Of a stretch of DNA of 64,000 bases, positions 13,739 through 56,020 are shown one piece after another. The position numbers and the translations under genes are program-made. How positions within the stretch are numbered: the stretch's first letter is position 1; every line of letters starts with the position of its first letter. This DNA comes from Escherichia coli (GTDB lineage Bacteria; Pseudomonadota; Gammaproteobacteria; Enterobacterales; Enterobacteriaceae). The stretch lies in assembly GCF_022846255.1 (NCBI RefSeq), contig NZ_AP025682.1. One strand, 5' to 3'. Below the pieces are notes generated by a model. It saw only the letters and a program-made list of their open reading frames with translations, made no database searches and had not been told where the DNA came from.

Positions 13739-13753
13739 TTGCAGGAGCTGCCT

Positions 13754-16234
13754 ATGTTGAGAATGACCCCACTTGCATCAGCAATCGTAGCGTTATTGAT
13801 CGGCATTGAAGCTTATGCAGCTGAAGAAACCTTTGATACCCATTTCATGATAGGTGGAATGAAAGACCAGCAGGTTTCAAATATTCGTCTTGAAGATAAT
13901 CAGCCCTTGCCGGGGCAGTATGACATCGATATTTATGTCAATAAGCAATGGCGTGGGAAATATGAGATCTTTGTTAAAGACAACCCGCAAGAAACATGTT
14001 TATCAAGGGAAATGATCAAGCGGTTAGGCATTAATACCGATAGCTTTGCCAGCGGTAAGCAATGTTTAACATTTAAGCAACTTATTCAGGGCGGGAGCTA
14101 TACCTGGGATATCGGAGTTTTTCGTCTCGATTTCAGTGTCCCGCAGGCCTGGGTGGAAGAGCTGGAAAGTGGCTATGTTCCACCGGAAAACTGGGAGCGG
14201 GGTATTAATGCGTTTTATACCTCTTATTATGTGAGTCAGTATTACAGCGATTATAAAGCGTCCGGTAATAGCAAGAGTACATATGTACGTTTTAACAGCG
14301 GGTTAAATTTATTGGGGTGGCAACTGCATTCTGATGCCAGTTTCAGTAAAACAAATAACAATCCAGGGGGGTGGAAAAGCAATACCCTGTATCTGGAACG
14401 TGGATTTGCCCAACTTCTCGGCACGCTTCGTGTGGGTGATATGTACACATCAAGCGATATTTTTGATTCTGTTCGCTTCAGCGGTGTGCGGTTGTTTCGT
14501 GATATGCAGATGTTGCCTAACTCGAAACAAAATTTTACGCCACGGGTGCAGGGGATTGCTCAGAGTAACGCGCTGGTAACTATTGAACAGAATGGTTTTG
14601 TGGTTTATCAGAAAGAGGTTCCTCCTGGCCCGTTTGCGATTACAGATTTGCAGTTGGCCGGAGGTGGAGCAGATCTTGATATCAGCGTGAAAGAGGCGGA
14701 CGGTTCGGTAACCACCTATCTGGTGCCTTATGCAGCGGTACCAAATATGCTGCAACCCGGCGTGTCGAAATATGATTTTGCGGCGGGTCGTAGCCATATT
14801 GAAGGGGCGAGCAAACAAAGTGATTTTGTCCAGGCGGGTCATCAGTATGGTTTTAATAACTTATTAACGCTGTATGGTGGCTCGATGGTCGCGAATAATT
14901 ATTACGCGTTCACTTTGGGGACTGGCTGGAATACACGCATTGGTGCCATTTCCGTCGATGCCACGAAGTCGCATAGTAAACAAGACAACGGCGATGTGTT
15001 TGACGGGCAAAGTTATCAAATTGCCTACAACAAATTTGTGAGCCAAACGTCGACACGTTTTGGTCTGGCGGCCTGGCGTTATTCGTCGCGTGATTATCGG
15101 ACATTTAATGATCACGTATGGGCAAACAATAAAGATAATTATCGCCGTGATGAAAACGATATCTATGACATTGCCGATTATTACCAGAACGATTTTGGCC
15201 GTAAAAATAGCTTCTCTGCCAATATGAGTCAGTCATTGCCAGAAGGCTGGGGTTCTGTGTCCTTAAGTACGTTATGGCGAGATTACTGGGGGCGTAGCGG
15301 CAGCAGTAAGGATTATCAGTTGAGTTATTCCAACAACCTGCGAAGGATAAGCTATACCCTCGCGGCAAGCCATGCTTATGACGAGAATCATCATGAAGAG
15401 AAACGTTTTAATATTTTTATATCGATTCCCTTTGATTGGGGTGATGACGTTACGACGCCTCGTCGGCAAATATATATGTCTAACTCAACGACGTTTGATG
15501 ATCAGGGGGTTGCCTCAAATAATACGGGATTATCAGGAACCGTTGGAAGCCGGGATCAGTTTAACTATGGGGTCAACCTGAGTTATCAGTATCAGGGAAA
15601 TGAAACGACAGCTGGGGCGAATTTAACCTGGAACGCGCCGGTTGCGACAGTGAATGGCAGTTATAGTCAGTCGAGTGCTTATCGACAGGCTGGAGCCAGT
15701 GTTTCAGGGGGCATTGTCGCCTGGTCGGGTGGCGTTAATCTGGCAAACCGTCTTTCTGAAACGTTTGCTGTGATGAATGCGCCAGGAATTAAAGATGCTT
15801 ATGTCAATGGGCAAAAATATCGCACAACAAACCGTAATGGAGTGGTGGTATACGACGGAATGACACCTTATCGGGAAAATTACCTGATGTTGGATGTGTC
15901 ACAAAGCGATAGCGAAGCAGAATTACGTGGCAACCGGAAAATTGCCGCCCCTTATCGCGGCGCGGTTGTACTGGTTAATTTTGATACCGATCAGCGCAAG
16001 CCATGGTTTATAAAAGCATTAAGAGCGGATGGGCAACCATTAACGTTTGGTTATGAAGTCAATGATATCCATGGTCATAATATTGGTGTTGTCGGCCAGG
16101 GAAGCCAGTTATTTATTCGCACCAATGAAGTACCGCCATCGGTTAATGTGGCAATTGATAAGCAACAAGGGCTTTCATGCACAATCACCTTCGGTAAAGA
16201 GATTGATGAAAGTAAAAATTATATTTGCCAGTAA
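13754..16234 (+). CDS. yehB: fimbrial outer-membrane usher YehB
   Basis: About 826 aa, signal peptide MLRMTPLASAIVALLIGIEAYA, usher-size beta-barrel protein between chaperone and adhesin genes. Confidence 0.9.
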   Translation: MLRMTPLASAIVALLIGIEAYAAEETFDTHFMIGGMKDQQVSNIRLEDNQPLPGQYDIDIYVNKQWRGKYEIFVKDNPQETCLSREMIKRLGINTDSFASGKQCLTFKQLIQGGSYTWDIGVFRLDFSVPQAWVEELESGYVPPENWERGINAFYTSYYVSQYYSDYKASGNSKSTYVRFNSGLNLLGWQLHSDASFSKTNNNPGGWKSNTLYLERGFAQLLGTLRVGDMYTSSDIFDSVRFSGVRLFRDMQMLPNSKQNFTPRVQGIAQSNALVTIEQNGFVVYQKEVPPGPFAITDLQLAGGGADLDISVKEADGSVTTYLVPYAAVPNMLQPGVSKYDFAAGRSHIEGASKQSDFVQAGHQYGFNNLLTLYGGSMVANNYYAFTLGTGWNTRIGAISVDATKSHSKQDNGDVFDGQSYQIAYNKFVSQTSTRFGLAAWRYSSRDYRTFNDHVWANNKDNYRRDENDIYDIADYYQNDFGRKNSFSANMSQSLPEGWGSVSLSTLWRDYWGRSGSSKDYQLSYSNNLRRISYTLAASHAYDENHHEEKRFNIFISIPFDWGDDVTTPRRQIYMSNSTTFDDQGVASNNTGLSGTVGSRDQFNYGVNLSYQYQGNETTAGANLTWNAPVATVNGSYSQSSAYRQAGASVSGGIVAWSGGVNLANRLSETFAVMNAPGIKDAYVNGQKYRTTNRNGVVVYDGMTPYRENYLMLDVSQSDSEAELRGNRKIAAPYRGAVVLVNFDTDQRKPWFIKALRADGQPLTFGYEVNDIHGHNIGVVGQGSQLFIRTNEVPPSVNVAIDKQQGLSCTITFGKEIDESKNYICQ

Positions 16235-16249
16235 TAGTCAGGTGGTTCT

Positions 16250-17284
16250 ATGGAAATTCGCATAATGCTATTTATAGTAATGATGATGGTTATGCCTGTG
16301 AGCTATGCGGCATGTTATAGTGAGTTATCTGTTCAGCACAATTTGGTTGTTCAGGGGGATTTTGCACTTACTCAAACACAAATGGCGACCTATGAGCATA
16401 ATTTTAATGATTCGTCATGCGTGAGTACAAATACTATCACACCTATGAGCCCGTCGGATATTATTGTTGGACTTTATAACGATACCATTAAATTAAATTT
16501 ACATTTTGAATGGACCAATAAAAACAACATTACGTTGTCAAATAATCAGACCAGTTTCACCAGTGGTTATTCGGTGACGGTGACACCTGCGGCCAGTAAT
16601 GCAAAAGTGAATGTTTCTGCGGGGGGCGGGGGTTCAGTGATGATTAATGGAGTTGCGACATTATCCAGTGCTTCATCATCGACACGCGGGAGTGCCGCAG
16701 TACAATTTCTACTGTGTTTATTAGGTGGTAAGTCATGGGATGCATGTGTAAATAGCTACAGAAATGCATTGGCACAAAATGCAGGTGTCTATTCCTTTAA
16801 TCTGACATTGTCATACAACCCGATAACCACAACCTGCAAACCGGACGATTTATTAATTACGTTAGAGAGTATTCCCGTTTCACAATTACCAGCCACAGGT
16901 AACAAAACAACAATAAATAGTAAAAAAGGGGATATTATTCTGCGTTGTAAAAATTTATTAGGTCAACAAAATCAAACATCACGGAAAATGCAGGTGTATT
17001 TATCAAGTTCTGATTTGTTAGCCGGCAGTAACACGATCCTGAAAGGTGCAGAAGATAATGGAGTCGGATTTATGCTTGAAAGCAATAGTTCGCCAGTCAC
17101 ATTTTTAAATATCACTGATAACAGCAAAGGGTACACAAATTTAAAAGAAATTGCGGCGAAGTCAAAAATTACAGATACAACGGTCTCAATTCCAGTAACT
17201 GCCAGTTACTATGTTTATGATAAAAATAAAGTAAAATCTGGTGCAATACAGGCAACCGCATTAATCAACGTGAAATACGACTAA
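16250..17284 (+). CDS. yehA: fimbrial adhesin-like protein YehA
   Basis: 344 aa, signal peptide, last gene of the yeh cluster. Confidence 0.8.
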   Translation: MEIRIMLFIVMMMVMPVSYAACYSELSVQHNLVVQGDFALTQTQMATYEHNFNDSSCVSTNTITPMSPSDIIVGLYNDTIKLNLHFEWTNKNNITLSNNQTSFTSGYSVTVTPAASNAKVNVSAGGGGSVMINGVATLSSASSSTRGSAAVQFLLCLLGGKSWDACVNSYRNALAQNAGVYSFNLTLSYNPITTTCKPDDLLITLESIPVSQLPATGNKTTINSKKGDIILRCKNLLGQQNQTSRKMQVYLSSSDLLAGSNTILKGAEDNGVGFMLESNSSPVTFLNITDNSKGYTNLKEIAAKSKITDTTVSIPVTASYYVYDKNKVKSGAIQATALINVKYD

Positions 17285-17340
17285 TAACAAGCAAGACGAG
17301 CAAGTGGCTAATAATAAAAAATAACAAGGTGTCTGCATTT

Positions 17341-17367
17341 CCCCCTCATGATGAGGGGGCTTTTTTT
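17341..17367 (+). terminator. intrinsic terminator after yehA (CCCCCTCATGATGAGGGGG + T7)
   Basis: Perfect GC hairpin followed by TTTTTTT; the rcnB stop codon (17366-17368, minus) lies within the T-tract. Confidence 0.6.
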
Positions 17368-17704
17368 AGCGATGATAAAAAATCTCACCGTCGTAGGCTT
17401 TAATGATTTTACCGTCGGTGTCGCTGATCAACACGTACGCGCCACCCATATAGGTCCAGTGCGTCCCGGCATCAGGCGCGGGCAGGTTACGTAACTGCCA
17501 CTGCTTAATGTTGTACTCATCGGTACGGTACATTTCTGGTACGGTGTCACCTGGTTTGAAATGCTTAAAGTCAGCAATGAAACTGCTTAACTCATACTTA
17601 GAAATTCCCGAGGTATTGGTCGAACCCGCGGTGGCTGGTGCGGCCCAGGCGGCACTGGTAACCAGCAAAAGCGCACCCAGCAACATCTTATTTTTAATGG
17701 TCAT
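17366..17704 (-). CDS. rcnB: periplasmic Ni/Co homeostasis protein RcnB
   Basis: 112-aa product starting MTIKNKMLLGALLLVTSAAWA (signal peptide); the longer 172-aa ORF in the track is an upstream extension. Confidence 0.9.
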   Translation of the reverse strand: MTIKNKMLLGALLLVTSAAWAAPATAGSTNTSGISKYELSSFIADFKHFKPGDTVPEMYRTDEYNIKQWQLRNLPAPDAGTHWTYMGGAYVLISDTDGKIIKAYDGEIFYHR

Positions 17705-17922
17705 AAACTCTCCACTTTGGGGATCTGTAATATCAGTCGCATATCTTTCCTGCCATACAATATAACTGACAAGCGATATTTTGTTAGTGATCCCATGATT
17801 TCGTAAAAAGTGTAAATGAAAGGATGCCCTAAAAGCATCCTTAGCGAGCAGAGAGTCAGCGGAAATAGCTGATTTAAGAATCATCCTGGGCTGAAGATAA
17901 CATGCAAGCCTAAAGGATTGAG

Positions 17923-18747
17923 TTATCGCATTATGCCCATGAAGCCATGTACGCCCATATACACACCAACTAAGCCAATCAACAGACTGGAAAAATAGGG
18001 AGCGCGTTTAGCGAGAGTGTTAAATCCGCTCCAGCGTTTTGCGACCTGCTGAACGCTGATTGCTGCGCCAACGCCTACGGTGACAAGCGTTAACGCCAGG
18101 CCGAGGCTGAAACTGACGACCAGTGTTGCGCCCAGTGTCAGGGCTTTCAACTGAATGCAAATCAACAGCACGGTAATTGCTGCCGGGCAGGGGATAAGGC
18201 CACCGGTTAAGCCAAATAGCAAAATTTGCCAGTTGGTGACCTCTCTACCATCAAAGCGTCGTTTAATGTCATTGGCATGGGCTCGTGCATGGGCATCCTG
18301 ATACTCGCCATGTTCGTGATGGTGATGATGTCCATGGTCGTGGTGATCTTCGTGATCGTGGTGATGATGCTCATGATCATGCTCGTGCATATTCTCCAGC
18401 CAGTTGCGTTCGCCGCGCCAGGTACGCCAGAACATCCAGAACGCGGTGCTAATAATGATCACTGCGGAAATCAACTGGAGCCACGGTTCTGCTGATTGAG
18501 CAGTAAAGCGTTTGCTGATCACCATCCCGCCAAAGGCAATTAACCAGACCACTGCGGTATGCGAAATAGTTGCTGCCAGTCCGAGCATCACCGCCTGTTT
18601 AATGGTGCCTTTGATGGCGATGATAAACGCCGCCATCATCGCTTTTGAGTGCCCCGGTTCCAGGCCATGAAGCGCACCAAGTAAGATGGCGCTGGGGATG
18701 AAGAACCAGGCGTTTCCTTGCTGAAGAAGTGTTGTAAATTCGGTCAT
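17923..18747 (-). CDS. rcnA: nickel/cobalt efflux transporter RcnA
   Basis: 274 aa membrane protein with a His-rich loop (HEHDHEHHHHDHEDHHDHGHHHHHEH). Confidence 0.95.
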   Translation of the reverse strand: MTEFTTLLQQGNAWFFIPSAILLGALHGLEPGHSKAMMAAFIIAIKGTIKQAVMLGLAATISHTAVVWLIAFGGMVISKRFTAQSAEPWLQLISAVIIISTAFWMFWRTWRGERNWLENMHEHDHEHHHHDHEDHHDHGHHHHHEHGEYQDAHARAHANDIKRRFDGREVTNWQILLFGLTGGLIPCPAAITVLLICIQLKALTLGATLVVSFSLGLALTLVTVGVGAAISVQQVAKRWSGFNTLAKRAPYFSSLLIGLVGVYMGVHGFMGIMR

Positions 18748-18784
18748 GATAATAATTCTTAGTATTAATTCGGCAATCTGATTC

Positions 18785-18819
18785 TACTCCCCCCCAGTAC
18801 CTGATACTACCCCCCAGTA
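18785..18819. promoter_or_regulatory. two RcnR operator sites (TACT-G6/C7-N-AGTA type) in the rcnR-rcnA intergenic region
   Basis: TACTCCCCCCCAGTA (18785-18799) and TACTACCCCCCAGTA (18805-18819), matching the published RcnR G-tract operator pattern. Confidence 0.7.
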
Positions 18820-18867
18820 GATTAATAGTGCTATGATTTTTCATATTCTTGTTAACCAGGTGTTGCC

Positions 18868-19140
18868 ATGTCTCATACAATCCGTGATAAACAGAAACTG
18901 AAAGCGCGTGCCAGTAAGATTCAGGGCCAGGTCGTGGCGCTCAAGAAAATGCTCGACGAGCCGCACGAATGCGCTGCAGTTTTACAACAGATTGCTGCTA
19001 TCCGTGGCGCGGTGAACGGTCTGATGCGGGAAGTGATTAAAGGTCATCTGACGGAACACATCGTTCACCAGGGGGATGAGCTAAAACGTGAAGAAGATCT
19101 GGATGTCGTTCTGAAGGTGCTGGATTCATATATCAAATAA
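18868..19140 (+). CDS. rcnR: Ni/Co-responsive repressor RcnR (CsoR/RcnR family)
   Basis: 90 aa, [29 protein letters not shown]; divergent from rcnA. Confidence 0.95.
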
Positions 19141-19229
19141 TTTATTAACGCGATTGTAAAACTGCCGTTTTTCCTCGTTTACAACGCGTGCGCTGGACAT
19201 TACCATCCTCCTTTGCGATTTATCATCGC

Positions 19230-19360
19230 AACCAAACGACTCGGGGTGCCCTTCTGCGTGAAGGCTGAGAAATACCCGTATCACCTGATCTGGATAATGC
19301 CAGCGTAGGGAAGTCACGGACCACCAGGTCATTGCTTCTTCACGTTATGGCAGGAGCAAA
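19230..19360 (+). promoter_or_regulatory. TPP (thiamine pyrophosphate) riboswitch in the thiM leader
   Basis: CGACTCGGGGTGCCCTTCTGCGTGAAGGCTGAGAAATACCCGTATCACCTGATCTGGATAATGCCAGCGTAGGGAAGTCACGG matches the thiM aptamer (thi-box CUGAGA ... ACCUGAUCUGGAUAAUGCCAGCGUAGGGAA); the AGGAG SD just before the ATG is sequestered by the expression platform. Confidence 0.9.
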
Positions 19361-19362
19361 CT

Positions 19363-20151
19363 ATGCAAGTCGACCTGCTGAGTTCAGCGCAATCTGCGCA
19401 CGCGTTACACCTTTTTCACCAACATTCCCCTCTTGTGCACTGTATGACCAACGATGTGGTGCAAACCTTTACTGCCAATACCTTGCTGGCGCTCGGTGCA
19501 TCGCCAGCGATGGTTATCGAAACCGAAGAAGCCAGTCAGTTTGCGGCTATCGCCAGTGCGTTGCTGATTAACGTTGGCACACTGACGCAGCCACGAGCGC
19601 AAGCGATGAGTGCTGCCGTTGAGCAAGCAACACGATCACAAACGCCCTGGACGCTTGATCCGGTTGCGGTTGGTGCGCTCGATTATCGCCGCCGTTTTTG
19701 TGTGGAACTTCTGTCCCATAAGCCAACCGCCATACGTGGTAATGCTTCGGAAATCATGGCATTAGCTGGCGTTGCTAATGGTGGACGGGGAGTGGATACC
19801 ACTGATGCCGCAGCTAACGCGATACCCGCTGCACAAACACTGGCACGGGAAACTGGCGCAATCGTCGTGGTCACTGGCGAGGTGGATTATGTTACCGATG
19901 GACATCGTATCATTGGCATTCACGGTGGCGATCCGTTAATGACCAAAGTGGTAGGAACTGGCTGTGCACTATCGGCGGTTGTCGCTGCCTGTTGTGCGCT
20001 ACCAGGCGATACGCTGGAAAATATCGCATCTGCCTGTCACTGGATGAAACAAGCCGGAGAACGCGCAGTCGCCAGAAGCGAGGGGCCAGGTAGTTTTGTT
20101 CCACATTTCCTTGATGCGCTCTGGCAATTGGCGCAGGAGGTGCAGGCATGA
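19363..20151 (+). CDS. thiM: hydroxyethylthiazole kinase
   Basis: 262 aa; downstream of the TPP riboswitch; 4-bp overlap with thiD. Confidence 0.95.
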
Positions 20152-27151: not shown

Positions 27152-27180
27152 TGCGCTTCATACGAACAGCACTACCCCGT

Positions 27181-27214
27181 AGGCCGGAAAAGGCGTTAAC
27201 GCCACATCCGGCAT
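27181..27214. repeat. REP element
   Basis: GCCGGAAAAGGCGTTAACGCCACATCCGGC palindromic unit downstream of fbaB. Confidence 0.5.
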
Positions 27215-27235
27215 AAAACCACGCGTACTTTGTTA

Positions 27236-27263
27236 CGGCTTCCCCCGGGAGGCCGTTTTTTTT
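27236..27263 (+). terminator. intrinsic terminator after fbaB
   Basis: CGGCTTCCCCCGGGAGGCCG hairpin followed by T8. Confidence 0.55.
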
Positions 27264-27325
27264 GCCTTTCATTCCTCGAACAATTTTCACATTATCGTTT
27301 TTGTGATCGTTATCTCGACATTTAA

Positions 27326-29525
<2,200 letters not shown>

Positions 29526-29534
29526 GGACGGTAT

Positions 29535-29987
29535 ATGACTAACCTGTTTGTTCGTAGCGGAATTTCTTTTGTCGATCGTAGCGAAGTTTTAACCCATATC
29601 GGTAATGAGATGCTCGCGAAAGGTGTGGTTCATGATACCTGGCCACAGGCATTAATTACCAGAGAAGCAGAATTCCCTACCGGGATAATGCTTGAGCAGC
29701 ACGCCATTGCAATACCGCATTGTGAGGCGATTCATGCTAAGTCGTCAGCCATTTATCTGTTAAGGCCAACAAATAAAGTTCATTTTCAGCAAGCGGATGA
29801 TGATAACGACGTGGCGGTATCGTTGGTTATTGCGTTGATTGTGGAAAATCCGCAGCAGCAATTGAAACTTTTACGCTGTTTATTTGGCAAGTTACAACAG
29901 CCCGATATCGTCGAGACACTAATCACTCTTCCTGAAACCCAGTTAAAGGAATACTTCACAAAGTATGTTTTAGATTCAGACGAATAA
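29535..29987 (+). CDS. gatA: galactitol PTS EIIA component
   Basis: 150 aa; operon position. Confidence 0.95.
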   Translation: MTNLFVRSGISFVDRSEVLTHIGNEMLAKGVVHDTWPQALITREAEFPTGIMLEQHAIAIPHCEAIHAKSSAIYLLRPTNKVHFQQADDDNDVAVSLVIALIVENPQQQLKLLRCLFGKLQQPDIVETLITLPETQLKEYFTKYVLDSDE

Positions 29988-30017
29988 ATCCCTCTGTAAC
30001 AATAAAAAGGACTATTT

Positions 30018-30302
30018 ATGAAACGCAAGATTATTGTCGCTTGCGGAGGCGCGGTTGCGACCTCTACGATGGCGGCGGAAGAAATTAAAGAGTTGTGTCA
30101 GAGTCATAATATTCCTGTTGAATTAATCCAGTGTCGGGTTAATGAAATAGAAACCTATATGGATGGCGTGCATTTGATATGCACCACTGCCAGGGTGGAT
30201 CGTAGTTTTGGCAATATTCCGTTAGTTCACGGCATGCCTTTTGTTTCTGGTGTCGGTATCGAAGCATTACAAAATAAAATTCTGACTATCTTACAGGGGT
30301 GA
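30018..30302 (+). CDS. gatB: galactitol PTS EIIB component
   Basis: 94 aa, [16 protein letters not shown] (phospho-Cys motif). Confidence 0.95.
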
Positions 30303-30305
30303 CCT

Positions 30306-31661
30306 ATGTTTTCAGAAGTCATGCGTTATATTCTCGACCTCGGCCCTACGGTGATGCTGCCGATTGTCATCATTATTTTTTCTAAAATATTAGGCATGAA
30401 GGCAGGCGATTGCTTTAAAGCGGGTCTGCATATCGGGATTGGCTTTGTTGGCATTGGCCTTGTGATTGGCTTAATGCTGGATTCCATTGGCCCGGCGGCG
30501 AAAGCGATGGCGGAAAATTTCGACCTGAATCTGCATGTGGTCGATGTCGGCTGGCCGGGCTCTTCACCCATGACCTGGGCGTCGCAAATTGCGCTGGTGG
30601 CGATTCCGATTGCGATTCTGGTTAACGTGGCGATGTTACTGACCCGTATGACGCGGGTGGTAAATGTTGATATCTGGAATATCTGGCATATGACCTTCAC
30701 CGGCGCGTTGCTGCATCTGGCAACCGGTTCATGGATGATAGGGATGGCGGGTGTGGTTATTCACGCGGCGTTTGTTTATAAACTCGGCGACTGGTTTGCC
30801 CGCGATACCCGAAATTTCTTTGAGCTGGAAGGAATTGCTATTCCGCACGGTACATCGGCGTATCTGGGGCCGATAGCGGTGCTGGTGGATGCTATCATCG
30901 AGAAAATCCCAGGGGTTAACCGTATTAAATTTAGTGCCGACGATATCCAGCGCAAATTTGGTCCTTTTGGCGAGCCCGTCACCGTGGGTTTTGTGATGGG
31001 ACTGATTATCGGCATCCTCGCGGGTTACGATGTCAAAGGTGTATTGCAGCTGGCGGTAAAAACGGCGGCAGTTATGCTGCTGATGCCACGGGTGATTAAA
31101 CCCATCATGGATGGTTTAACGCCCATCGCTAAGCAGGCCCGTAGTCGTTTACAGGCGAAGTTCGGCGGTCAGGAGTTCCTGATTGGCCTTGATCCGGCGT
31201 TGCTGCTGGGACATACGGCGGTGGTATCGGCAAGCCTGATTTTTATTCCACTCACCATTTTAATTGCTGTTTGTGTGCCGGGTAATCAGGTGCTGCCGTT
31301 TGGCGACCTTGCCACCATCGGCTTCTTTGTGGTGATGGCGGTCGCGGTGCATCGTGGAAATCTGTTCCGCACCTTAATTTCGGGTGTCATCATTATGAGC
31401 ATCACCCTGTGGATCGCGACGCAAACTATTGGTTTGCACACCCAACTGGCGGCTAATGCGGGCGCGTTAAAAGCCGGGGGTATGGTGGCTTCAATGGATC
31501 AGGGCGGTTCTCCCATTACCTGGTTACTGATTCAGGTTTTCTCCCCGCAAAATATTCCCGGTTTCATTGTTATCGGCGCAATTTATCTTACCGGTATTTT
31601 CATGACCTGGCGTAGAGCGCGTGGCTTTATTAAACAAGAGAAAGCCGTTCTCGCAGAATAA
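30306..31661 (+). CDS. gatC: galactitol PTS EIIC permease
   Basis: 451 aa polytopic membrane protein. Confidence 0.95.
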   Translation: MFSEVMRYILDLGPTVMLPIVIIIFSKILGMKAGDCFKAGLHIGIGFVGIGLVIGLMLDSIGPAAKAMAENFDLNLHVVDVGWPGSSPMTWASQIALVAIPIAILVNVAMLLTRMTRVVNVDIWNIWHMTFTGALLHLATGSWMIGMAGVVIHAAFVYKLGDWFARDTRNFFELEGIAIPHGTSAYLGPIAVLVDAIIEKIPGVNRIKFSADDIQRKFGPFGEPVTVGFVMGLIIGILAGYDVKGVLQLAVKTAAVMLLMPRVIKPIMDGLTPIAKQARSRLQAKFGGQEFLIGLDPALLLGHTAVVSASLIFIPLTILIAVCVPGNQVLPFGDLATIGFFVVMAVAVHRGNLFRTLISGVIIMSITLWIATQTIGLHTQLAANAGALKAGGMVASMDQGGSPITWLLIQVFSPQNIPGFIVIGAIYLTGIFMTWRRARGFIKQEKAVLAE

Positions 31662-31708
31662 TTTTTACCTGAGGGGGAGGTTATCCCCCTTAACAATCAG
31701 GAGTTTTT

Positions 31709-32749
31709 ATGAAATCAGTGGTGAATGATACTGATGGTATCGTGCGCGTAGCAGAAAGCGTCATTCCTGAAATTAAACATCAGGATGAGGTGCGGGTAAA
31801 AATTGCCAGCTCGGGCTTATGTGGTTCCGATTTACCCAGGATATTTAAAAATGGTGCACATTATTATCCAATAACGTTAGGCCATGAATTTAGTGGCTAT
31901 ATTGATGCGGTGGGATCCGGTGTTGATGATTTACACCCCGGCGATGCGGTTGCCTGTGTGCCGTTATTACCCTGTTTTACTTGTCCAGAGTGTCTGAAAG
32001 GGTTTTATTCCCAGTGCGCAAAATATGATTTTATTGGCTCACGGCGTGATGGTGGATTTGCCGAATATATTGTCGTTAAGCGAAACAATGTCTTTGCACT
32101 ACCTGCGGATATGCCTATTGAGGATGGCGCTTTTATTGAACCGATTACTGTTGGCCTGCATGCGTTCCATTTAGCGCAAGGATGTGAGAATAAAAACGTT
32201 ATTATTATTGGTGCCGGAACCATTGGCCTGCTGGCAATTCAGTGCGCTGTCGCGTTGGGAGCAAAGAGTGTGACGGCTATCGACATTAGCTCAGAAAAAC
32301 TGGCACTGGCAAAATCTTTCGGTGCGATGCAAACATTTAACAGCCGTGAAATGAGCGCGCCGCAAATACAGGGCGTTTTACGCGATCTGCGCTTTAATCA
32401 GCTTATCCTCGAGACGGCTGGCGTCCCGCAAACCGTCGAACTGGCGGTAGAGATTGCCGGTCCTCATGCCCAACTGGCGCTGGTAGGCACGTTGCATCAG
32501 GATCTGCATTTAACATCGGCAACGTTTGGCAAAATATTGCGTAAAGAGCTGACGGTTATCGGCAGTTGGATGAACTACTCCAGCCCTTGGCCGGGGCAGG
32601 AGTGGGAAACGGCGAGCCGGTTGCTGACAGAACGTAAGTTAAGCCTGGAGCCATTAATCGCTCACCGTGGAAGCTTTGAAAGCTTCGCCCAGGCGGTGCG
32701 TGACATCGCTCGTAATGCCATGCCGGGCAAAGTGTTGCTCATTCCCTGA
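31709..32749 (+). CDS. gatD: galactitol-1-phosphate 5-dehydrogenase (Zn-dependent MDR)
   Basis: 346 aa; GHEFSG zinc-ADH motif and GAGTIG Rossmann motif. Confidence 0.95.
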   Translation: MKSVVNDTDGIVRVAESVIPEIKHQDEVRVKIASSGLCGSDLPRIFKNGAHYYPITLGHEFSGYIDAVGSGVDDLHPGDAVACVPLLPCFTCPECLKGFYSQCAKYDFIGSRRDGGFAEYIVVKRNNVFALPADMPIEDGAFIEPITVGLHAFHLAQGCENKNVIIIGAGTIGLLAIQCAVALGAKSVTAIDISSEKLALAKSFGAMQTFNSREMSAPQIQGVLRDLRFNQLILETAGVPQTVELAVEIAGPHAQLALVGTLHQDLHLTSATFGKILRKELTVIGSWMNYSSPWPGQEWETASRLLTERKLSLEPLIAHRGSFESFAQAVRDIARNAMPGKVLLIP

Positions 32750-32848
32750 AACCGCGGGCCAGCGTGATGCTGGCCCGGTATTGTGCAAAACAGATCATTC
32801 ACCAATGGTCCCCCTTCGTTTACACTAGCCACAATTGAATATGGGTAA

Positions 32849-33628
32849 ATGACGATGAATTCATTCGAGCGAAGGAATAAGATCATCCAATTAGTGAATG
32901 AACAGGGAACCGTGCTTGTTCAGGATCTGGCGGGAGTATTTGCTGCCTCGGAAGCGACAATCCGTGCCGATTTGCGCTTTCTCGAACAAAAAGGCGTGGT
33001 TACGCGCTTTCATGGCGGTGCGGCGAAAATAATGTCCGGTAATAGTGAAACCGAGACCCAGGAAGTCGGGTTTAAAGAGCGATTTCAGCTCGCCAGCGCG
33101 CCAAAAAACAGAATAGCGCAGGCGGCAGTCAAAATGATCCACGAAGGGATGACCGTTATTCTCGACAGCGGAAGTACGACAATGCTTATCGCCGAAGGAT
33201 TAATGACCGCCAAAAATATCACGGTGATTACCAACAGTCTCCCGGCAGCATTTGCCCTTTCCGAAAATAAAGACATTACTCTGGTCGTCTGCGGTGGGAC
33301 CGTCCGCCATAAAACACGCTCGATGCATGGCTCCATTGCTGAGCGTTCATTGCAGGATATTAATGCCGATTTAATGTTTGTCGGTGCTGATGGTATTGAT
33401 GCGGTTAATGGTATTACGACCTTTAATGAAGGCTATTCGATTAGCGGGGCGATGGTCACAGCCGCAAATAAAGTGATTGCCGTTCTCGATTCATCGAAAT
33501 TTAATCGTCGCGGTTTTAATCAGGTACTGCCAATCGAAAAAATTGACATTATTATTACCGATGATGCTGTGTCTGAGGTGGATAAACTGGCATTGCAGAA
33601 GACACGGGTAAAGTTAATTACGGTGTAG
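32849..33628 (+). CDS. gatR: DeoR-family repressor of the gat operon, intact
   Basis: 259 aa uninterrupted ORF with N-terminal DeoR HTH (RRNKIIQLVNEQGTVLVQDLAGVFAASEATIRADLRFLE); start may be 32855. Confidence 0.9.
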   Translation: MTMNSFERRNKIIQLVNEQGTVLVQDLAGVFAASEATIRADLRFLEQKGVVTRFHGGAAKIMSGNSETETQEVGFKERFQLASAPKNRIAQAAVKMIHEGMTVILDSGSTTMLIAEGLMTAKNITVITNSLPAAFALSENKDITLVVCGGTVRHKTRSMHGSIAERSLQDINADLMFVGADGIDAVNGITTFNEGYSISGAMVTAANKVIAVLDSSKFNRRGFNQVLPIEKIDIIITDDAVSEVDKLALQKTRVKLITV

Positions 33629-33641
33629 TATTGTTCTGTAT

Positions 33642-33671
33642 GCCGGATAAGGTGTTTACACCGCATCCGGC
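33642..33671. repeat. REP element
   Basis: GCCGGATAAGGTGTTTACACCGCATCCGGC between convergent gatR and yegS. Confidence 0.5.
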
Positions 33672-33709
33672 ATTACGGATTCTCCCTGGTTCAACAGAGA
33701 ATAGTTTGA

Positions 33710-34609
33710 TTAACGCAATAATGGACAATCTGGTGGTAATCGACAACGCAACGCCGCCGGAAGTATTTCAATATGGAAGTTTTGCCCACTCAACGGTTCG
33801 CCATCAAGATTAAAAGTGATTTCGTGTGGGGCTTGTATATCAAACCACGACGAAGCGCCTTCGATAATATTCGGGTTATCTTCGTCAGATTTTAATGTTG
33901 ATACGAGAGCCGGAAGAATTTCATCGCCGGTAAAAATGCGCAGTTGCAGCAAGCCATCGTTAATTAACGCGTTCGGGCACAATTGCTGACCGCCACCGGC
34001 CTGACGCCCGTTACCAATACCAATGACCAGGGCGTCACCTTGCCAGTGAAAGTTTTCACCGCGGATTTCACAACGGTCCGGTTGCAGAGTATCCATGCGC
34101 ATTAAGCCATGAATGATGTAAGAGACGCCACCCAGCGCGGCTTTTAATTTTTCCGGCGTTTCTGTGGTAATACGCGTCCCAAATCCGCCTGTCGCCATAT
34201 TAATAAAACAGGTTTGTTTGTTGACCTGCGCCATATCTATCGCAATGGCGTTACCGGCAATTGCCAGTTTCAGCGCCTTATCCAGTGCCTCAGGAATCCC
34301 TACACTGGTGGCAAAATCATTGGCGGTTCCTAATGGCAAAATTCCCAGCGCGGGTATGTCATCCCCCTCACACTGAATCAACGCCGTAGAAACTTCATTA
34401 ATGGTGCCATCGCCACCACCGGCAATCACCGTTGCGACGCCCAACTTCCGGGCCTCCTCTACATATCGTGCGGCATCGCCTTTCTCCCAGGTGACCCGCA
34501 CATGGATCGTCATTCCTTCCTCACGCAACAGCATAATTGCTTCGCGCAAGGGTAAATTGTCAGTACTTTTGCCATTAAGAATCAGTAAGCTGGCGGGAAA
34601 TTCTGCCAT
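33710..34609 (-). CDS. yegS: lipid kinase YegS (DAG-kinase-like fold)
   Basis: 299 aa, [15 protein letters not shown]...; GGDGT motif. Confidence 0.93.
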
Positions 34610-35341: not shown

Positions 35342-35498
35342 GAATATTTTTTGGTAAGCGTCAAACATGCGCGTTCTGGCTGTGCGTAACCGGAACCTGT
35401 GCGAGCACGATGCCAATAAGTGAAAGGCATCGTGCTATGAGGGGAGATTCTATCGATGTGGTCAATGGAAGACGGTTACCAGGATACGGCTTATGCAT

Positions 35499-35585
35499 AA
35501 AAAATAAGCCCGTGTAAGGGAGATTACACAGGCTAAGGAGGTGGTTCCTGGTACAGCTAGCATTTTATGGGTTATGTTTTTCAGC
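35499..35585 (-). ncRNA. cyaR: CyaR (RyeE) Hfq-dependent sRNA
   Basis: Minus strand reads GCTGAAAAACATAACCCATAAAATGCTAGCTGTACCAGGAACCACCTCCTTAGCCTGTGTAATCTCCCTTACACGGGCTTATTTTTT, matching CyaR including the terminator hairpin and U-tract. Confidence 0.85.
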
Positions 35586-35669
35586 GAAACGGATGATAAC
35601 CTTAATAAATGCAGCTGTATGTGATCGGTTTCTAAGAATTTTCCATCCGGGAAAAATAATCGAAATTAA

Positions 35670-37133: not shown

Positions 37134-37430
37134 TTAGCTCCAGTGTAAATGTCTGGAGGCGTCCTGGTTTTGGTTAAGGATACGAATGACGATAATTTCC
37201 TCTGGTGATTGCAGGAAATAAATTACGTGGCGTTCAAAAGGAAGAACAAAAATACCTTCGCCTAATTCAGGTCTGGGTGTACCTATATTATTGTTACTCA
37301 GAATCTGGAGAACGTCTGAAAGATGTTCCACATATCTGTCGGCTTGTGGTTCGCCGAAATGGTGATAGCTGTAATACCAGATGCCTTCTAAATCCTCATT
37401 GGCTTTTGGCATGAGTTTTATAGTACGCAC
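37134..37430 (-). CDS. ParE/RelE-superfamily toxin (type II TA)
   Basis: 98 aa; pattern A..DL..I..Y ... HVIYF ... IIVIRIL typical of ParE toxins; start 1 nt after the stop of the upstream RHH antitoxin gene. Confidence 0.75.
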   Translation of the reverse strand: MRTIKLMPKANEDLEGIWYYSYHHFGEPQADRYVEHLSDVLQILSNNNIGTPRPELGEGIFVLPFERHVIYFLQSPEEIIVIRILNQNQDASRHLHWS

Positions 37431-37431
37431 A

Positions 37432-37683
37432 TTATTTCCTTATCCCTGCTTTCACCTTCCGTAAAAACGCGTCCTTTTCCCACGGCTGAGCTTCACCACT
37501 ACTCAACCCTTCAGCGAGCATGTCACGTAACGCTTGCAGGCGAGACTCTGCTTGCTTTTCTCGAAGTAAGCGCAGCGACTCACGGATCACTTCGCTTTGG
37601 GTGCGATAGTCGCCGGATTCAATTAAGGACTCGATAAATTCACGCAACTCATCGCCGAGATCAACCGTCATCGTTCTGGCCAT
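37432..37683 (-). CDS. ParD-like (RHH/CopG, COG3609-type) antitoxin
   Basis: About 83 aa from MARTMTVDLGDELREFIESLIESGDYRTQSEVIRESLRLLREKQ (ribbon-helix-helix fold pattern); immediately upstream of the ParE-like gene. Confidence 0.75.
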   Translation of the reverse strand: MARTMTVDLGDELREFIESLIESGDYRTQSEVIRESLRLLREKQAESRLQALRDMLAEGLSSGEAQPWEKDAFLRKVKAGIRK

Positions 37684-37696
37684 TTTACGCCCGCCT

Positions 37697-37713
37697 GTAA
37701 GTAAAAATCTTAC
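37697..37713. promoter_or_regulatory. candidate autoregulatory operator palindrome of the TA promoter (GTAAG-N7-CTTAC)
   Basis: Inverted repeat 14 bp upstream of the antitoxin ATG; the operator assignment is inference. Confidence 0.3.
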
Positions 37714-37936
37714 ATCAGTGTATTTCATAAACCGGATAGCGTCACGAAAGTATTAGAAGATATTTTGGCATATGAACATGTTCAGGAAGATAAGTATGGG
37801 ATGGTAAACAAAGAAAGCACAACGAGTGCTTGTCAGTGCCCACTATTTTAATGGCGGAGGTTAATCTTAATTATCAATAACTAAGAGTTGTTTTGATATA
37901 AAGCCGGACGCCAACAACCCACGCCCGGCATCGTAA

Positions 37937-45061: not shown

Positions 45062-48000
45062 TTACGCCTCCTCTTCATGACGGGCAAAGCGGCTTTTGGT
45101 CCACAATGCCAGACGGTCGAACAGCAGATAAATCACCGGCGTGGTAAACAGCGTCAGCACCTGGCTGACAATCAGACCGCCGACCATGCCGATACCTAAC
45201 GGACGACGCAGTTCCGCGCCGACCCCGGTACTCAACATCAGCGGCAGCGCACCAAGCAGAGCCGCCAGAGTGGTCATCAGGATCGGACGAAAACGCAACA
45301 GACAAGCCTGGTAAATAGCTTCGCGCGGCGACATGCCTTGCTCGCGCTCAGCAGCCAGCGCGAAGTCGATCATCATGATGGCGTTCTTCTTCACGATACC
45401 GATCAGCAAAATAATGCCGATAATGGCAATCACATCCAGTTCGCTACCGGCAATCATTAACGCCAGCAGCGCGCCGACCCCTGCGGTGGGTAGCGTCGAG
45501 AGAATGGTGATCGGGTGAATAAAGCTCTCGTACAGAATGCCGAGCACGATATACATCGCCACCACCGCCGCGACAATCAGCCAGACAGTGCTGCCCAGCG
45601 CTGACTGGAAGGCGAGGGTGCTGCCCTGGAACTGCGTGGTGATATCCACCGGCAGATTCAGCGTCTTCTCTGTGTCCATAATCGCTTGCACCGCATCGCC
45701 CAGCGAATAGTTATCCGGCACGTTAAAGGAGATAGTCGTTACCGGGAACTGATCCAGATGGTTGATGGAAAGCGGCGCAAAACGCTGCTCAATTTTGGCA
45801 ATTGAGCTTAACGGCACCACGCCACCGTCGCTGCTGGTCAGGCGAATGGTATCCAGCGCCGCGAGGCCTGGGGTATTTTCGGTGTTGTGTTCCAGTACCA
45901 CGCGATACTGGTTAGCCTGAGTATAAATAGTGGAAATCAGTCGCTGACCAAACGCGTTGTACAGGGCGTTATCGACATCCGCCATGCTGATCCCTAGGCG
46001 GCTGGCGCTGTCCCTGTCGACATTGACATACGCCACCAGCCCTTTGTCCTGCCAGTCGCTGGAGACATCAGAAAGCTGTGGCAGCTGCTGGAGTTTTTCC
46101 ATCAACTGTGGCACCCAGGTACTGAGCGCATCCAGTGACGTGGCCTGCAAGGTAAACTGGTACTGGGTGCGGCTGACCTGAGTATCAATAGTCAGGTCCT
46201 GCGTTGGTTGCAGGAAGAGATCGACGCCCGGCACTTTATCTACCGCCGTTTGCAGACGGGCGATGACTTTTTGCACCCGGTCATCTCGTTCATCCAGTGG
46301 TTTGAGATTGATCTGTAAACGCGCACTGTTCAGCGACGGGTTAGTGCCATCAACGCCAACAAATGAGGTCAAACTTTGCACTGCCGGATCCTGCAAAATC
46401 ACGTCCGCGACCTGGCGTTGCCGCTGGGCCATATTCGCAAAGGAGCTGGATTGCGGTGCCTGCAAAGTGCCCTGAATAATGCCGTTGTCCTGCACCGGGA
46501 AGAAACCTTTCGGAATGAACACCCACAGCAGCACGCTAAGCAGCAGCGTGCTGAGCGCCACGCTTAAGGTCAGCCACGGATGATTCAGCACTTTCGCCAG
46601 CCCACGACCATAGGCGGCGATTATCCTGTCGAACATTTTCTCCGAGGCACGGGAGAAGCGGTTCTGTTTACGCAGCGACTCCTGGCTGAGCATCCGCGCG
46701 CACATCATCGGTGTCAGGGTCAGCGACACCACCGCCGAGATCAAAATCGCGACTGCCAGGGTAATAGCAAATTCGCGGAACAGTCGCCCGACGATATCGC
46801 CCATAAACAGCAGGGGGATCAACACCGCAATCAGCGAGAAGGTCAGCGAGATAATGGTAAAGCCGATTTCACCCGCGCCTTTGAGCGCCGCCGCCAACGG
46901 TTTTTCGCCTTTTTCGATATAGCGGGAAATATTTTCGATCACCACGATGGCGTCATCGACCACGAATCCGGTGGCGATAGTTAACGCCATCAGCGTCAGG
47001 TTATTGATTGAAAAATCGAGAAACACCATGACCGCAAAGGTGCCAATTAACGACAGCGGTACAGCAACACCGGGAATGATGGTCGCCGGAATATTGCGCA
47101 AAAACAGGTAGATAATCATGACTACCAGCGCGATAGCCATCATCAGCTCAAACTGGGTATCGTCGACCGATGCGCGGATATTGGTGGTACGGTCAGAAAG
47201 TACCGTCACCTTCACCGATTTCGGCAGACTCTCGGTGAGCTGTGGTAGCATCTGCCGGATGCTGTCGGCGGTGGAGATAATGTTAGCACCGGGCTGGCGC
47301 TGGACATTCATCACAATGGCCTGTTCTTTGTTCGCCCATGCGCCGAGCCAGCTGTTTTCTGCTCCTTGCTCTACAGTAGCGACATCGCCCAGACGAATTG
47401 GTGCGCCGTTCTGGTAGGCGATGATTAGCTGGCGATACTCTTCGGCGGATTGCATCTGGTCGTTAGCGGAAAGCGTGACCGCGCGGGAAGGGCCGTCGAG
47501 GCTACCTTTTGCCGAGTTAACGTTAGCGCCGGTAATAGCGGTGCGTACGGTTTCGCTGGTCAGGCCGAGGGCGGCAATCGCCTGAGCGTTAAGTTTGACG
47601 CGAACAGCCGGACGCTGGCCGCCGGAAAGTGTGACCAGCCCTACGCCGGAAATCTGCGAGATTTTCTGCGCGACGCGGGTTTCCACCATATCTTCCACCT
47701 GGGTCATCGGCATGGCGGTTGAGGTGACGGCGAGCGTCATGATCGGTGGATCTGCCGGGTTCACTTTGCTGTAAACCGGCGGGTTAGGCAGATCGCTCGG
47801 TAGCAGGTTAGTGGCAGCGTTAATCGCGGCCTGCACTTCCTGCTCGGCGACATCCAGCGGCAATGTTAGCTGGAACTGTAAAGTGATAACTGACGCACCG
47901 CCGGAACTTTGCGACGACATCTGTTTCAGGCCAGACATCTGCCCGAACTGGCGTTCGAGCGGCGCGGTAACGGCAGAGGTCATGACATCCGGGCTTGCAC

Positions 48001-48184
48001 CTGGATAAAGCGTGACCACCTGAATGGTTGGATAGTCCACTTCCGGCAGCGCCGAAACGGGCAGGGCGCGATAACCGATAATCCCGGCGAGTAAGATCGC
48101 CACCATCAGCAGCGTGGTGGCGACAGGACGCATAATAAACAGGCGCGACGGGCCGCCTGTGCTGCTCGGGGGTAACACCTGCAT
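45062..48184 (-). CDS. mdtB: RND multidrug efflux pump subunit MdtB
   Basis: 1040 aa RND permease, paralog of MdtC. Confidence 0.95.
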
Positions 48185-49431
48185 CAGGAGCGCGCTCCTT
48201 TTTTCGCGTATTCGCGGCTGGTGGCTTTATCTTCCGGGGTAGTGGCGCTCTGGGCTTCCACGACTTCCACTTTCGCCCCTTCGGTCAGGCGATCAATGCC
48301 GTCCGTCACTACGCGGTCGCCCGCAGAAATACCTGCACGGATCACCACTTTCTGACTGTCCTGAATGCCCGGTGTCACCAGATGTTTGCTGACTTTGTTT
48401 TCGCTATTCAGTACCCAGACAAAATGGCCTTCGTTGCCCATTTGCAGTGCGGCGGTGGGGATCACCACGGCGTTTTGTTCGGTATCGACTAACATGCGAG
48501 CGTTAACAAACTGATTAGGGAAAAGCGCATCATCCTGATTATTAAAGCGAGCTTTCACTTTAATCGTACCGGTAGTGGCATCGATTTGGTTATCGAGACT
48601 TAACAGCGTGCCTTCACTTAACTTCTTCGAGTTGGTGCGATCCCAGGCTTCTACCACCAGCGGTTTTCCGGCTTTTTGCGCCTGTACAACGGTGGCGATA
48701 TCGCTTTCCGGCAGAGTAAAGACCAGATCGATAGGATGCGTCTGGGTGATCACCACAATCCCGGTGGTGTCGCCACTGGAGATTTGGTTACCAACATCAA
48801 CCTGCTTGAGACCAACGCGACCATCAACTGGTGCGGTGATACGGCTCCAGTCGAGTTGCAGCTGTGCGCTGGCGACGCTTGCTTCATCAGCCTTAATGGT
48901 ACCTTCGGTTTCACTGACCAGCGCTTGTTGGGCATCCAGTTCCTGACGAGATACGAGATTGGTTTTTGCCAGTTGTTGATAACGCGCCAGGTCACGGCGG
49001 GCGTTGGCGAGCGTGGCTTTATCTTTTGCCAGTTGGCCCTGGGCTTGTGCTAATGCAACTTTGAACTGGCTTGGGTCAATTTCTGCCAGTAAATCGCCTG
49101 CTTTGACCTGCTGGCCTTCCTGGAAATGTAACGCCATCAGTTGACCGTCCACGCGGCTGCGCACCGTAACAGTATTAGCGGCGGTAATGGTGCCAAGCCC
49201 GGTGAGGTAACGCGGAACAGCCTGTTCTACTGCGGTCGCCGCCTGAACCGGAGCTAATGGGCCGGCACGCATACCACGGCGACCACCCGCTGGCGATTGC
49301 TGCGCTTGTTTCGTCGCCCCAGGGGCTGCACTCTGGGAGTCATTGCGGCCTTGCCAGAACCAGAATGCGGCGATGGCGGCGATAACCACCACGATTACGA
49401 TTACCCAACGGGATTTATAACTGCCTTTCAT
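48184..49431 (-). CDS. mdtA: RND membrane fusion protein MdtA
   Basis: 415 aa from [26 protein letters not shown]; the 464-aa track ORF is an upstream extension. Confidence 0.9.
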
Positions 49432-49475
49432 CGTTAAGAGTTTCTCTTCCTGAAACGTTTCGCGGAATGATACTA

Positions 49476-49493
49476 GTGTAGCCAGCCAATAAG
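49476..49493 (-). promoter_or_regulatory. candidate BaeR box upstream of mdtA
   Basis: Minus strand reads TTTTTCTCCCTTATTGGC, 17/18 match to the published BaeR consensus TTTTTCTCCATDATTGGC (recalled from memory). Confidence 0.4.
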
Positions 49494-49663
49494 GGAGAAA
49501 AATGGAGGAATTATGAAACACTGTCGGGAATCGTCTGAATGACGGGCACATTTGCGAGCACGCATCCAGTAATAACACATGAAACTATTTTATCTACGCG
49601 TTAGCGATAGACTGCTTGCATGGCGAAAGGAGATAAGCCGACGATTTCAGCGGGACGCTGAAA

Positions 49664-49805
49664 CGGAAAAGCCCCTCCCGAGGAAGGGGCCTTAAATAAG
49701 GAAAGGGTCATGATGAAGTGGATCATCATCGTGGTGCTCTTAGTGATTAGCTACCCAGCATACTAAGACTACCAGGGCGGGGGAAACCCCGCTCTACCCT
49801 CACTC
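49664..49805 (-). ncRNA. Sib-family antisense sRNA (antitoxin RNA); boundaries approximate
   Basis: Antisense to the ibs ORF; minus-strand terminator hairpin CCCCTTCC-TC-GGGAGGGG followed by CTTTTCC at about 49664-49690. The 5' end is estimated from the usual Sib length of about 140 nt. Confidence 0.45.
49710..49766 (+). CDS. Ibs-family type I toxin, 18 aa (MMKWIIIVVLLVISYPAY)
   Basis: Short hydrophobic ORF with SD AAGGAAAGGG; Ibs family signature MMK...LLVIS..AY. A or B assignment not attempted. Confidence 0.7.
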   Translation: MMKWIIIVVLLVISYPAY

Positions 49806-49991
49806 CTGAAAGTATGCCTTCACGGTCCAATTGTCAATCCGCAGACTTTGCAGTCTGCGATCCTGCCAGCAAATATTCTTTGCGAGTCGTTACGCAATAA
49901 TCACACTTGAAACTATTTTATCCGCAAGTCAGCGATAGACTGCATACAGGGCGAAAGGAGGTAAGCCGAAGATTTCAGCGGGACGCTGAAA

Positions 49992-50133
49992 CGGGAAAGC
50001 CCCTCCCGAGGAAGGGGCCTTAAATAAGGAAAGGGTCATGATGAAGCTACTCATCATCGTGGTGCTCTTAGTCATTAGCTGGCCAGCTTACTAAGACTAC
50101 CAGGGCGGGGGAAACCCCGCTCTACCCTCACTC
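49992..50133 (-). ncRNA. Sib-family antisense sRNA, second copy; boundaries approximate
   Basis: Same hairpin and terminator, offset by about 328 bp from copy 1. Confidence 0.45.
50038..50094 (+). CDS. Ibs-family type I toxin, 18 aa (MMKLLIIVVLLVISWPAY)
   Basis: Second copy within repeat unit 2; same SD and context. Confidence 0.7.
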   Translation: MMKLLIIVVLLVISWPAY

Positions 50134-50311
50134 CTGAAATTATGTCACTCCGCCCTTAGTGTCAATCGACGGCTCTCCGTTCTTGCGAGGCGAATAGCAA
50201 AATTTTCTGCGCCGCCGGGCCTAATTCTGAAAGTTTCTTCGTTTGCTCTTATTTCATTATTGCAATCGGTATGATACCGGACCTCAATAATTCTCTAAGA
50301 AAGGATTTCTT

Positions 50312-50971
50312 ATGAGCGAACAAATCACGTTTGCCACCAGCGATTTTGCCAGTAACCCGGAACCACGTTGCCCCTGCATTTTGCTGCTGGATGTTTCTGG
50401 CTCGATGAGCGGCAGACCCATTAATGAACTTAACGCCGGATTGGTTACCTTTCGCGATGAGCTGCTTGCCGACCCGCTGGCCTTAAAAAGAGTGGAACTC
50501 GGTATTGTGACGTTCGGCCCAGTGCATGTGGAACAACCCTTTACCAGCGCCGCTAATTTTTTCCCGCCCATCCTGTTTGCCCATGGGGATACACCAATGG
50601 GCGCCGCCATTACCAAAGCCCTGAATATGGTTGAGGAGCGCAAACGTGAGTATCGCGCCAATGGTATTTCCTATTATCGTCCGTGGATTTTCCTGATTAC
50701 CGATGGCGCACCAACCGATGAGTGGCAGGCTGCTGCCAACAAGGTGTTTCAGGGGGAAGAAGATAAGAAGTTTGCCTTCTTTTCCATCGGTGTTCAGGGG
50801 GCGGATATGAAGACGCTGGCCCAAATCAGCGTTCGTCAGCCTTTGCCATTGCAGGGATTACAATTCCGTGAACTGTTTAGCTGGTTATCCAGTTCGCTGC
50901 GTTCGGTTTCCCGCTCCACGCCGGGAACGGAAGTTGTGCTGGAAGCGCCAAAAGGCTGGACGTCAGTGTGA
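50312..50971 (+). CDS. yegL: vWA-domain protein YegL (TerY-like)
   Basis: 219 aa; MIDAS motif DVSGSMSG and downstream ITDGAPTD; 4-bp overlap with the next gene. Confidence 0.9.
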
Positions 50972-51729
50972 GCTGGCGTCTGGTCTATGCATCAACCGTT
51001 GGAACGTCGCACATCAGCGCGGACTTGCCTTGCCAGGATGCCTGCCAGATGCAGGTTGCCTGGTTAAATGACCAGCAGCCATTATTGTCGGTATTTGTCG
51101 CTGATGGCGCAGGCAGTGTCTCGCAGGGTGGCGAAGGTGCGATGCTCGCCGTCAATGAAGCGATGGCTTATATGTCGCAAAAAGTGCAGGGCGGGGAATT
51201 GGGGCTTAATGATGTCCTCGCAACGGACATTGTGCTGACCATTCGTCAGCGACTTTTTGCCGAGGCGGAAGCCAAAGAATTAGCGGTTCGCGATTTTGCC
51301 TGCACGTTTTTGGGATTGATTTCATCAGCTAATGGCACCTTGATTATGCAGATTGGCGATGGCGGCGTGGTGGTAGATTTGGGTCACGGTTTGCAACTGC
51401 CGCTCACGCCGATGGTGGGGGAATATGCCAATATGACGCACTTCATTACCGATGACGATGCTGTTTCCAGACTGGAAACTTACACCAGTACTGAGCGTGC
51501 GCATAAAGTTGCAGCATTTACGGATGGTATTCAGCGACTGGCGTTAAATATGCTGGATAATTCTCCGCATGTGCCTTTCTTTACCCCGTTTTTCAATGGA
51601 CTGGCGTCAGCAACGCAGGAACAACTCGATTTATTACCTGAATTGTTAAAGCAGTTTTTGTCCAGCCCGACGGTAAACGAGCGTACCGATGATGATAAAA
51701 CGTTGGCACTGGCGCTGTGGTTACCATGA
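50968..51729 (+). CDS. pphC: PP2C-like protein phosphatase PphC (YegK)
   Basis: 253 aa; conserved Asp-rich segments (VADGAGS, QIGDGG, FTDG) of PP2C-like phosphatases; overlaps yegI by 13 bp. Confidence 0.9.
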
Positions 51730-53666: not shown

Positions 53667-53678
53667 GCCAGTTTTCAA

Positions 53679-56013: not shown

Positions 56014-56020
56014 CGTTGGT

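Follow-up and report, generated by a model that had tools for sequence, protein, structure and literature searches.

An intact gatR gene, encoding a predicted repressor of the galactitol operon, downstream of gatYZABCD in Escherichia coli

Organization of the gat locus

The window, that is, the whole 64,000-nucleotide stretch of Escherichia coli DNA analysed here, contains the genes of galactitol metabolism in the order fbaB-gatYZABCD-gatR-yegS, which is the same in E. coli K-12, HS and 2014C-3075 (Table 1). All six gat structural genes are full length and free of internal stop codons. This includes gatC, an intact gene of 451 codons, whereas its counterpart in K-12 MG1655 is annotated as a pseudogene and is 2 nt longer; the MG1655 gatC thus represents a second K-12 lesion of the same operon that is absent from the window. 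The terminal gene of the cluster, gatR, is followed by yegS, which shares 98.0% nucleotide identity with the K-12 gene and whose position fixes the synteny of the gatR locus. The first-pass annotation had described gatR as lying upstream of yegS; the two genes are instead convergent.

Table 1. Coordinates of the gat locus features and of other elements in the window
Feature	Position	Strand	Basis
TPP riboswitch ahead of thiM	19232-19328	+	Present, as in HS annotation
gatY upstream control region	27258-27379	+	Promoter scan, inverted repeat, 10-strain comparison
gatYZABCD, presumed target operon	27380-32749	+	blastn against K-12 genes, translations
gatZ	28263-29525	+	
gatC	30306-31661	+	
gatD-gatR spacer, 105 bp	32750-32854	+	Three-way comparison
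gatR coding sequence	32855-33628	+	257 codons plus stop, RefSeq-style start; ORF, ungapped K-12 alignment, HS identity
HTH_DeoR, N-terminal DNA-binding domain	32870-33028	+	aa 6-58, Pfam PF08220
DeoRC, C-terminal sensor (effector-binding) domain	33101-33562	+	aa 83-236, Pfam PF00455
Empty IS3E target GAC	33151-33153	+	Codons 99/100; K-12 junctions compared with window, IS3E annotation
REP-like imperfect palindrome	33640-33673		gatR-yegS spacer, inverted repeat search
yegS (lipid kinase), convergent downstream neighbour	33710-34609	-	ORF; Pfam DAGK_cat and YegS_C
cyaR sRNA	35502-35587	-	Rfam, 100.7 bits
ParE toxin and ParD antitoxin genes	37134-37430 and 37432-37728	-	Pfam
SIB antitoxin RNAs, two	49695-49837 and 50023-50165	-	137 and 141 bits

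The spacer between gatD and gatR has the same sequence in the window, K-12 and HS. A repeat search revealed a perfect hairpin with a 9-bp stem (32755-32777) directly 3' of the gatD stop codon, and a consensus scan of this spacer detected no sigma-70-like or gatR-specific promoter. The 81-bp gatR-yegS spacer contains a REP-like repeat with 16-nt arms that are 88% complementary and 2 nt apart; the palindrome is probably a REP element, likely to serve as a transcript end or stabilizer.

No gene of the locus has diverged further from K-12 than gatZ (94.1% nucleotide identity, 16 of 420 amino acids changed), whereas its neighbours are 97-99% identical at the nucleotide level. Even so, the exact GatZ protein of the window is very common in public assemblies (indexed in 12666 collection blocks), which suggests that distinct gatZ allele classes circulate by recombination. 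None of six loci encoding this exact protein exceeds 98.5% nucleotide identity to the window.

An uninterrupted gatR frame with a vacant IS3E target site

In the open reading frame listing of the window, 32849-33628 (+) is a single frame of 259 codons that opens with ATG and is translated without an internal stop, exactly as reported at first pass. For the same frame RefSeq uses the next ATG, at 32855, and hence a product of 257 amino acids; both lengths occur among public GatR gene calls. The spacing of a GGG at 32843-32845 weakly favours the 32855 start over the 32849 start. The two products differ by two residues, and gatR is intact with either start.

In MG1655 (NC_000913.3), gatR (b4498) is an annotated pseudogene consisting of two pieces (b2087 and b2090) of 299 nt and 475 nt, separated by the 1258-bp mobile element IS3E (insE5/insF5). 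When these fragments were rejoined (774 nt) and compared with positions 32855-33628 of the window, the two sequences proved to be of equal length and aligned without gaps, with 18 mismatches among the 774 nt, all of them synonymous and at the third codon position, so that the encoded proteins are identical over 257 of 257 residues. Because the rejoined K-12 fragments align ungapped and with no amino acid difference, the window gene carries no frameshift, stop or insertion; the first-pass annotation had left its reading open to such a defect on careful alignment to the two K-12 fragments, and none was found over the 774 nt.

The insertion point itself leads to the same result. The first gatR/IS3E junction of K-12 reads ...GGGATGAC/TGATCCTACC... 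and the second IS3E/gatR junction reads ...GGGTAAGATCA/GAC/CGTTATTC..., the element being inserted after gatR nucleotide 299 and flanked by a duplicated 3-bp GAC. At the corresponding point the window reads CGAAGGGATGAC/CGTTATTCTCGA, with one GAC only and no IS3 end sequence. Given that the GAC is single, the window carries an empty IS3E site, and the absence of an insertion element, noted at first pass, is borne out by both the unoccupied target and the ungapped alignment. One passage of a published study (PMC5850726) names the K-12 gatR insertion 'IS1'; by RefSeq annotation and sequence, the element is IS3E.

Insertion elements are a classic cause of assembly collapse, and an open frame might in general result from a real mobile element or frameshift that has been collapsed or polished away. 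Nothing specific to this locus points in that direction, and an artefact of this kind is exceedingly improbable here, considering that the sequence is seamless across the K-12 insertion point, with neither a second GAC nor an IS3 end, that the same uninterrupted arrangement is found in 4756 complete genomes and that every difference from the K-12 gatR is a clean synonymous substitution.

The description of K-12 gatR as broken by an IS3 copy, also made at first pass, holds for K-12 of the MG1655/W3110 type, in which b4498 is split by IS3E, but not for the K-12 strain NCM3722, which is reported to lack a gatR disruption (PMC3045373). The same has been reported for the B strain REL606 (PMC3446290).

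Domain architecture and family assignment

The GatR protein of the window combines an N-terminal helix-turn-helix with a C-terminal DeoRC sensor/oligomerization domain, the architecture that defines the DeoR/GlpR family. Both Pfam matches are far above their cut-offs, namely, 60.5 bits against 21 for HTH_DeoR (E=1.3e-16) and 174.2 bits against 31.8 for DeoRC (E=2.5e-51), the latter covering profile positions 5-159 of 160; with E-values of this order, gatR is not a chance open reading frame. The closest solved structure by sequence is 7l6l, a DeoR C-terminal domain (E=1.9e-11). Beyond family membership, assignment to GatR is indicated by identity to the K-12 and HS proteins, location after gatYZABCD and an uninterrupted frame; the K-12 gene occupies the same gatD-gatR-yegS locus and has the same length. 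The initial assignment to the DeoR family is sustained by the two domains, and that to gatR by the position between gatD and yegS and the complete identity to the rejoined K-12 GatR.

AgaR and SrlR belong to the DeoR family as well and repress the N-acetylgalactosamine and the glucitol PTS operon, respectively. They follow the same regulatory logic as GatR, in which a PTS operon is controlled by a repressor that responds to a sugar phosphate. AgaR and SrlR (GutR) share with the window GatR the combination of HTH_DeoR and DeoRC and similarity over the full length, but differ from it in genomic context and in the operon that they regulate. These two are also its best NCBIfam matches (AgaR, 232.6 bits, E=3.9e-69; SrlR, 226.3 bits, E=4.4e-67), which might be taken to mean that the protein is a paralogue with an AgaR- or SrlR-like specificity rather than the galactitol repressor. 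However, both scores fall below the curated equivalog cut-offs of 260 bits for AgaR and 350 bits for SrlR, and identity with either was rejected on these grounds. Since the two scores remain under the cut-offs, the window GatR is a distinct paralogue, as expected for GatR. Together with the location of the gene between gatD and yegS and the identity of its product to the GatR of K-12 and HS, this makes a different specificity most improbable.

Selection on GatR

Whereas the GatR of the window shows no amino acid changes relative to K-12, gatY, gatZ, gatB and gatD have accumulated 6, 16, 5 and 6 changes, respectively. Because the 18 synonymous differences from the K-12 gatR are accompanied by no non-synonymous ones, GatR is under strong purifying selection in the lineage of the window, which argues for a GatR that is in use.

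In mouse-gut evolution experiments, gatR is repeatedly knocked out by IS elements. The absence of amino acid changes relative to K-12 and HS and the identity of the 105-bp spacer, in a window that diverges by at least 1.9% from every complete RefSeq E. coli genome, could be read as unusually strong long-term selection in nature set against short-term selection for loss, as in a recurrent 'contingency' knock-out locus, or as the signature of an additional constrained role of the protein. We consider this broader reading unlikely, and most of it has already been discussed in the literature.

The region upstream of gatY

A sigma-70-like site, TCGACA-18-CATTAT, was identified upstream of gatY at 27315-27344. 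Just upstream of it lies TGTGA-N6-TCTCG, which resembles a CRP half-consensus, and the predicted gatY -10 element is bracketed by an 11-nt inverted repeat, ATTTAAAAACA/TGTTTTGAAAT (27320-27330 and 27344-27354). The sigma-70-like hexamers, the TGTGA motif and the inverted repeat are all conserved across 10 strains and represent candidate leads to a GatR operator and a CRP site.

Relative to K-12 and HS, about seven positions are changed in the 125 bp preceding gatY, and these variants are mostly common to other natural E. coli isolates. The exception is position 27294, which lies just ahead of the TGTGA motif and 86 nt before the gatY start. This base is A in the window but G in each of the nine E. 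coli strains compared with it, so that the substitution is private in this small sample. Such changes, and the G to A substitution at 27294 in particular, might render the operon constitutive or non-inducible in cis even though gatR is intact. This is very unlikely, given that all variants but one are common to other natural E. coli, that the hexamers of the sigma-70-like site persist along with the TGTGA motif and the repeat bracketing the -10 element and that strong purifying selection on GatR (0 non-synonymous versus 18 synonymous changes) implies a working target.

Further upstream, the fbaB-gatY spacer (27152-27260) measures 228 bp in the window versus 307 bp in K-12 and HS. The 79 extra bases of the latter two strains lie in the distal part of the spacer, leaving the promoter-proximal part unaffected, and resemble one more palindromic unit of the REP/BIME type.

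Predicted regulation of the gat operon

The E. coli gat operon and its GatR are the subject of the 1996 paper by Nobelmann and Lengeler (cited in PMC9997739). The GatR of the window is 100% identical to that of E. coli HS (WP_001295426.1), a strain with the same gene order in which gatR differs from the window only by silent changes, although some SNPs distinguish the two in the gatY upstream region. When Sousa et al. put the HS gatR sequence in place of the MG1655 pseudogene, the gat operon became regulated again (PMC5850726). The same study states that the IS insertion in the MG1655 gatR results in constitutive gat expression, and a disrupted gatR has been suggested to underlie the higher gat expression of MG1655 in comparison with both NCM3722 (PMC3045373) and REL606 (PMC3446290), in agreement with the link between K-12 gatR disruption and constitutive expression drawn in the first-pass annotation. 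A related case is provided by Salmonella Typhimurium, for which PMC7972205, citing Nolle et al. 2017, describes GatR as a repressor of the gat promoters and deletion of its helix-turn-helix as abolishing repression. The Salmonella protein acts in the same pathway but belongs to another species and another gene cluster, which includes STM3254, and is likened to the window GatR by description.

The prediction that the gat operon of the window is repressible and inducible is well founded, because its GatR is identical to the HS allele that restores regulation, none of the genes gatYZABCD is broken and the gatY promoter region has kept its core. The window gatR is thus very probably an ordinary functional wild-type allele, its product being the member of the DeoR family that represses gatYZABCD, the PTS/catabolic operon for galactitol.

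Judging from what is known of the DeoR family and from the papers cited above, GatR would occupy its operator at the gatY promoter when galactitol is absent and thereby block transcription. The GatABC PTS would import galactitol with concomitant phosphorylation, and a sugar-phosphate effector, presumably derived from galactitol and acting on the DeoRC domain, would then cause GatR to leave the DNA, allowing the operon to be expressed, probably with the help of cAMP-CRP. The IS3E of K-12, at codon 99/100, spares the helix-turn-helix and cuts off the sensor domain; in MG1655-type K-12, loss of this domain to the 1258-bp element would therefore leave the operon constitutive.

Thus, the strain represented by the window appears to carry the ancestral, regulated galactitol system, with a gatC that is intact, in contrast to that of MG1655. 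At the gat locus, K-12 MG1655 is an atypical reference, and differences from K-12 often mirror lesions of laboratory strains. Regulated versus constitutive gat expression affects fitness in the mouse gut (PMC5850726), and for this reason the gatR genotype predicts behaviour in colonization experiments. Apart from correct annotation, the intact gatR is of little value and offers nothing new on mechanism or biology.

Intact gatR among E. coli genomes

We surveyed 5426 complete RefSeq E. coli genomes with a 1051-nt query comprising the end of gatD, gatR and the end of yegS. This stretch is matched in 5109 genomes and is held as one uninterrupted place in 4756, a coverage-based count to which frameshift and nonsense alleles are invisible. 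An 80-nt sequence spanning the K-12 gatR/IS3E junction is present as one piece in 349 genomes, the named matches being ER1709 and MG-phbCAB-3-5, both laboratory derivatives of K-12. XH1815, the third example inspected and likewise counted as a laboratory K-12 derivative, combines the K-12-type IS3 split with the same ogrK remnant as K-12. BL21(RP) displays a separate, strain-specific rearrangement. The K-12 lesion consequently explains nearly all split cases (349 of roughly 353), and the possibility that the split genomes comprise many independent gatR disruptions was rejected, as the K-12 junction is shared by that many of them.

The exact 257-residue GatR was found on at least 1000 public contigs, and no other GatR protein is as common in E. 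coli. An intact gatR is thus normal for the species, MG1655 being the exception, as was already known. Accordingly, the contrast with K-12 emphasized at first pass is valid with respect to MG1655-type strains, but an intact gatR is not a distinguishing feature of the window, considering the 4756 uninterrupted loci against 349 with the K-12 junction.

The wider window

No genome among the 5426 exceeds 98.1% identity over any of the window pieces used in the identity search (1-20000, 24000-46000 and 46000-64000; 18-22 kb each). Only 2-4 contigs, labelled E. coli, encode the exact DgcE protein of the window, and the gat locus contains only 12 differences private to the window in comparison with seven other strains. 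A 36-nt gatR haplotype of the window had no exact match among the GTDB species representatives. The low overall identity, the rare DgcE and the few private gat differences indicate that the window stems either from a rarely sampled lineage or from a mosaic of common alleles.

Several elements outside the gat locus were also observed. Between trhP/yegQ and yegP lie the genes of a ParE toxin (Pfam, E=6.9e-14) and a ParD antitoxin (E=7.2e-19); the pair is present in strain 2014C-3075, whereas the annotations of K-12 MG1655 and HS show no such genes there. The cyaR sRNA lies directly between yegR and trhP (35342-35669), whereas in K-12 cyaR is followed by the cryptic P2-like remnant PR-X (ogrK, yegZ), which is absent here. 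The two SIB antitoxin RNAs and the TPP riboswitch are ordinary elements expected from the HS annotation, which includes ibs toxins and a TPP riboswitch.
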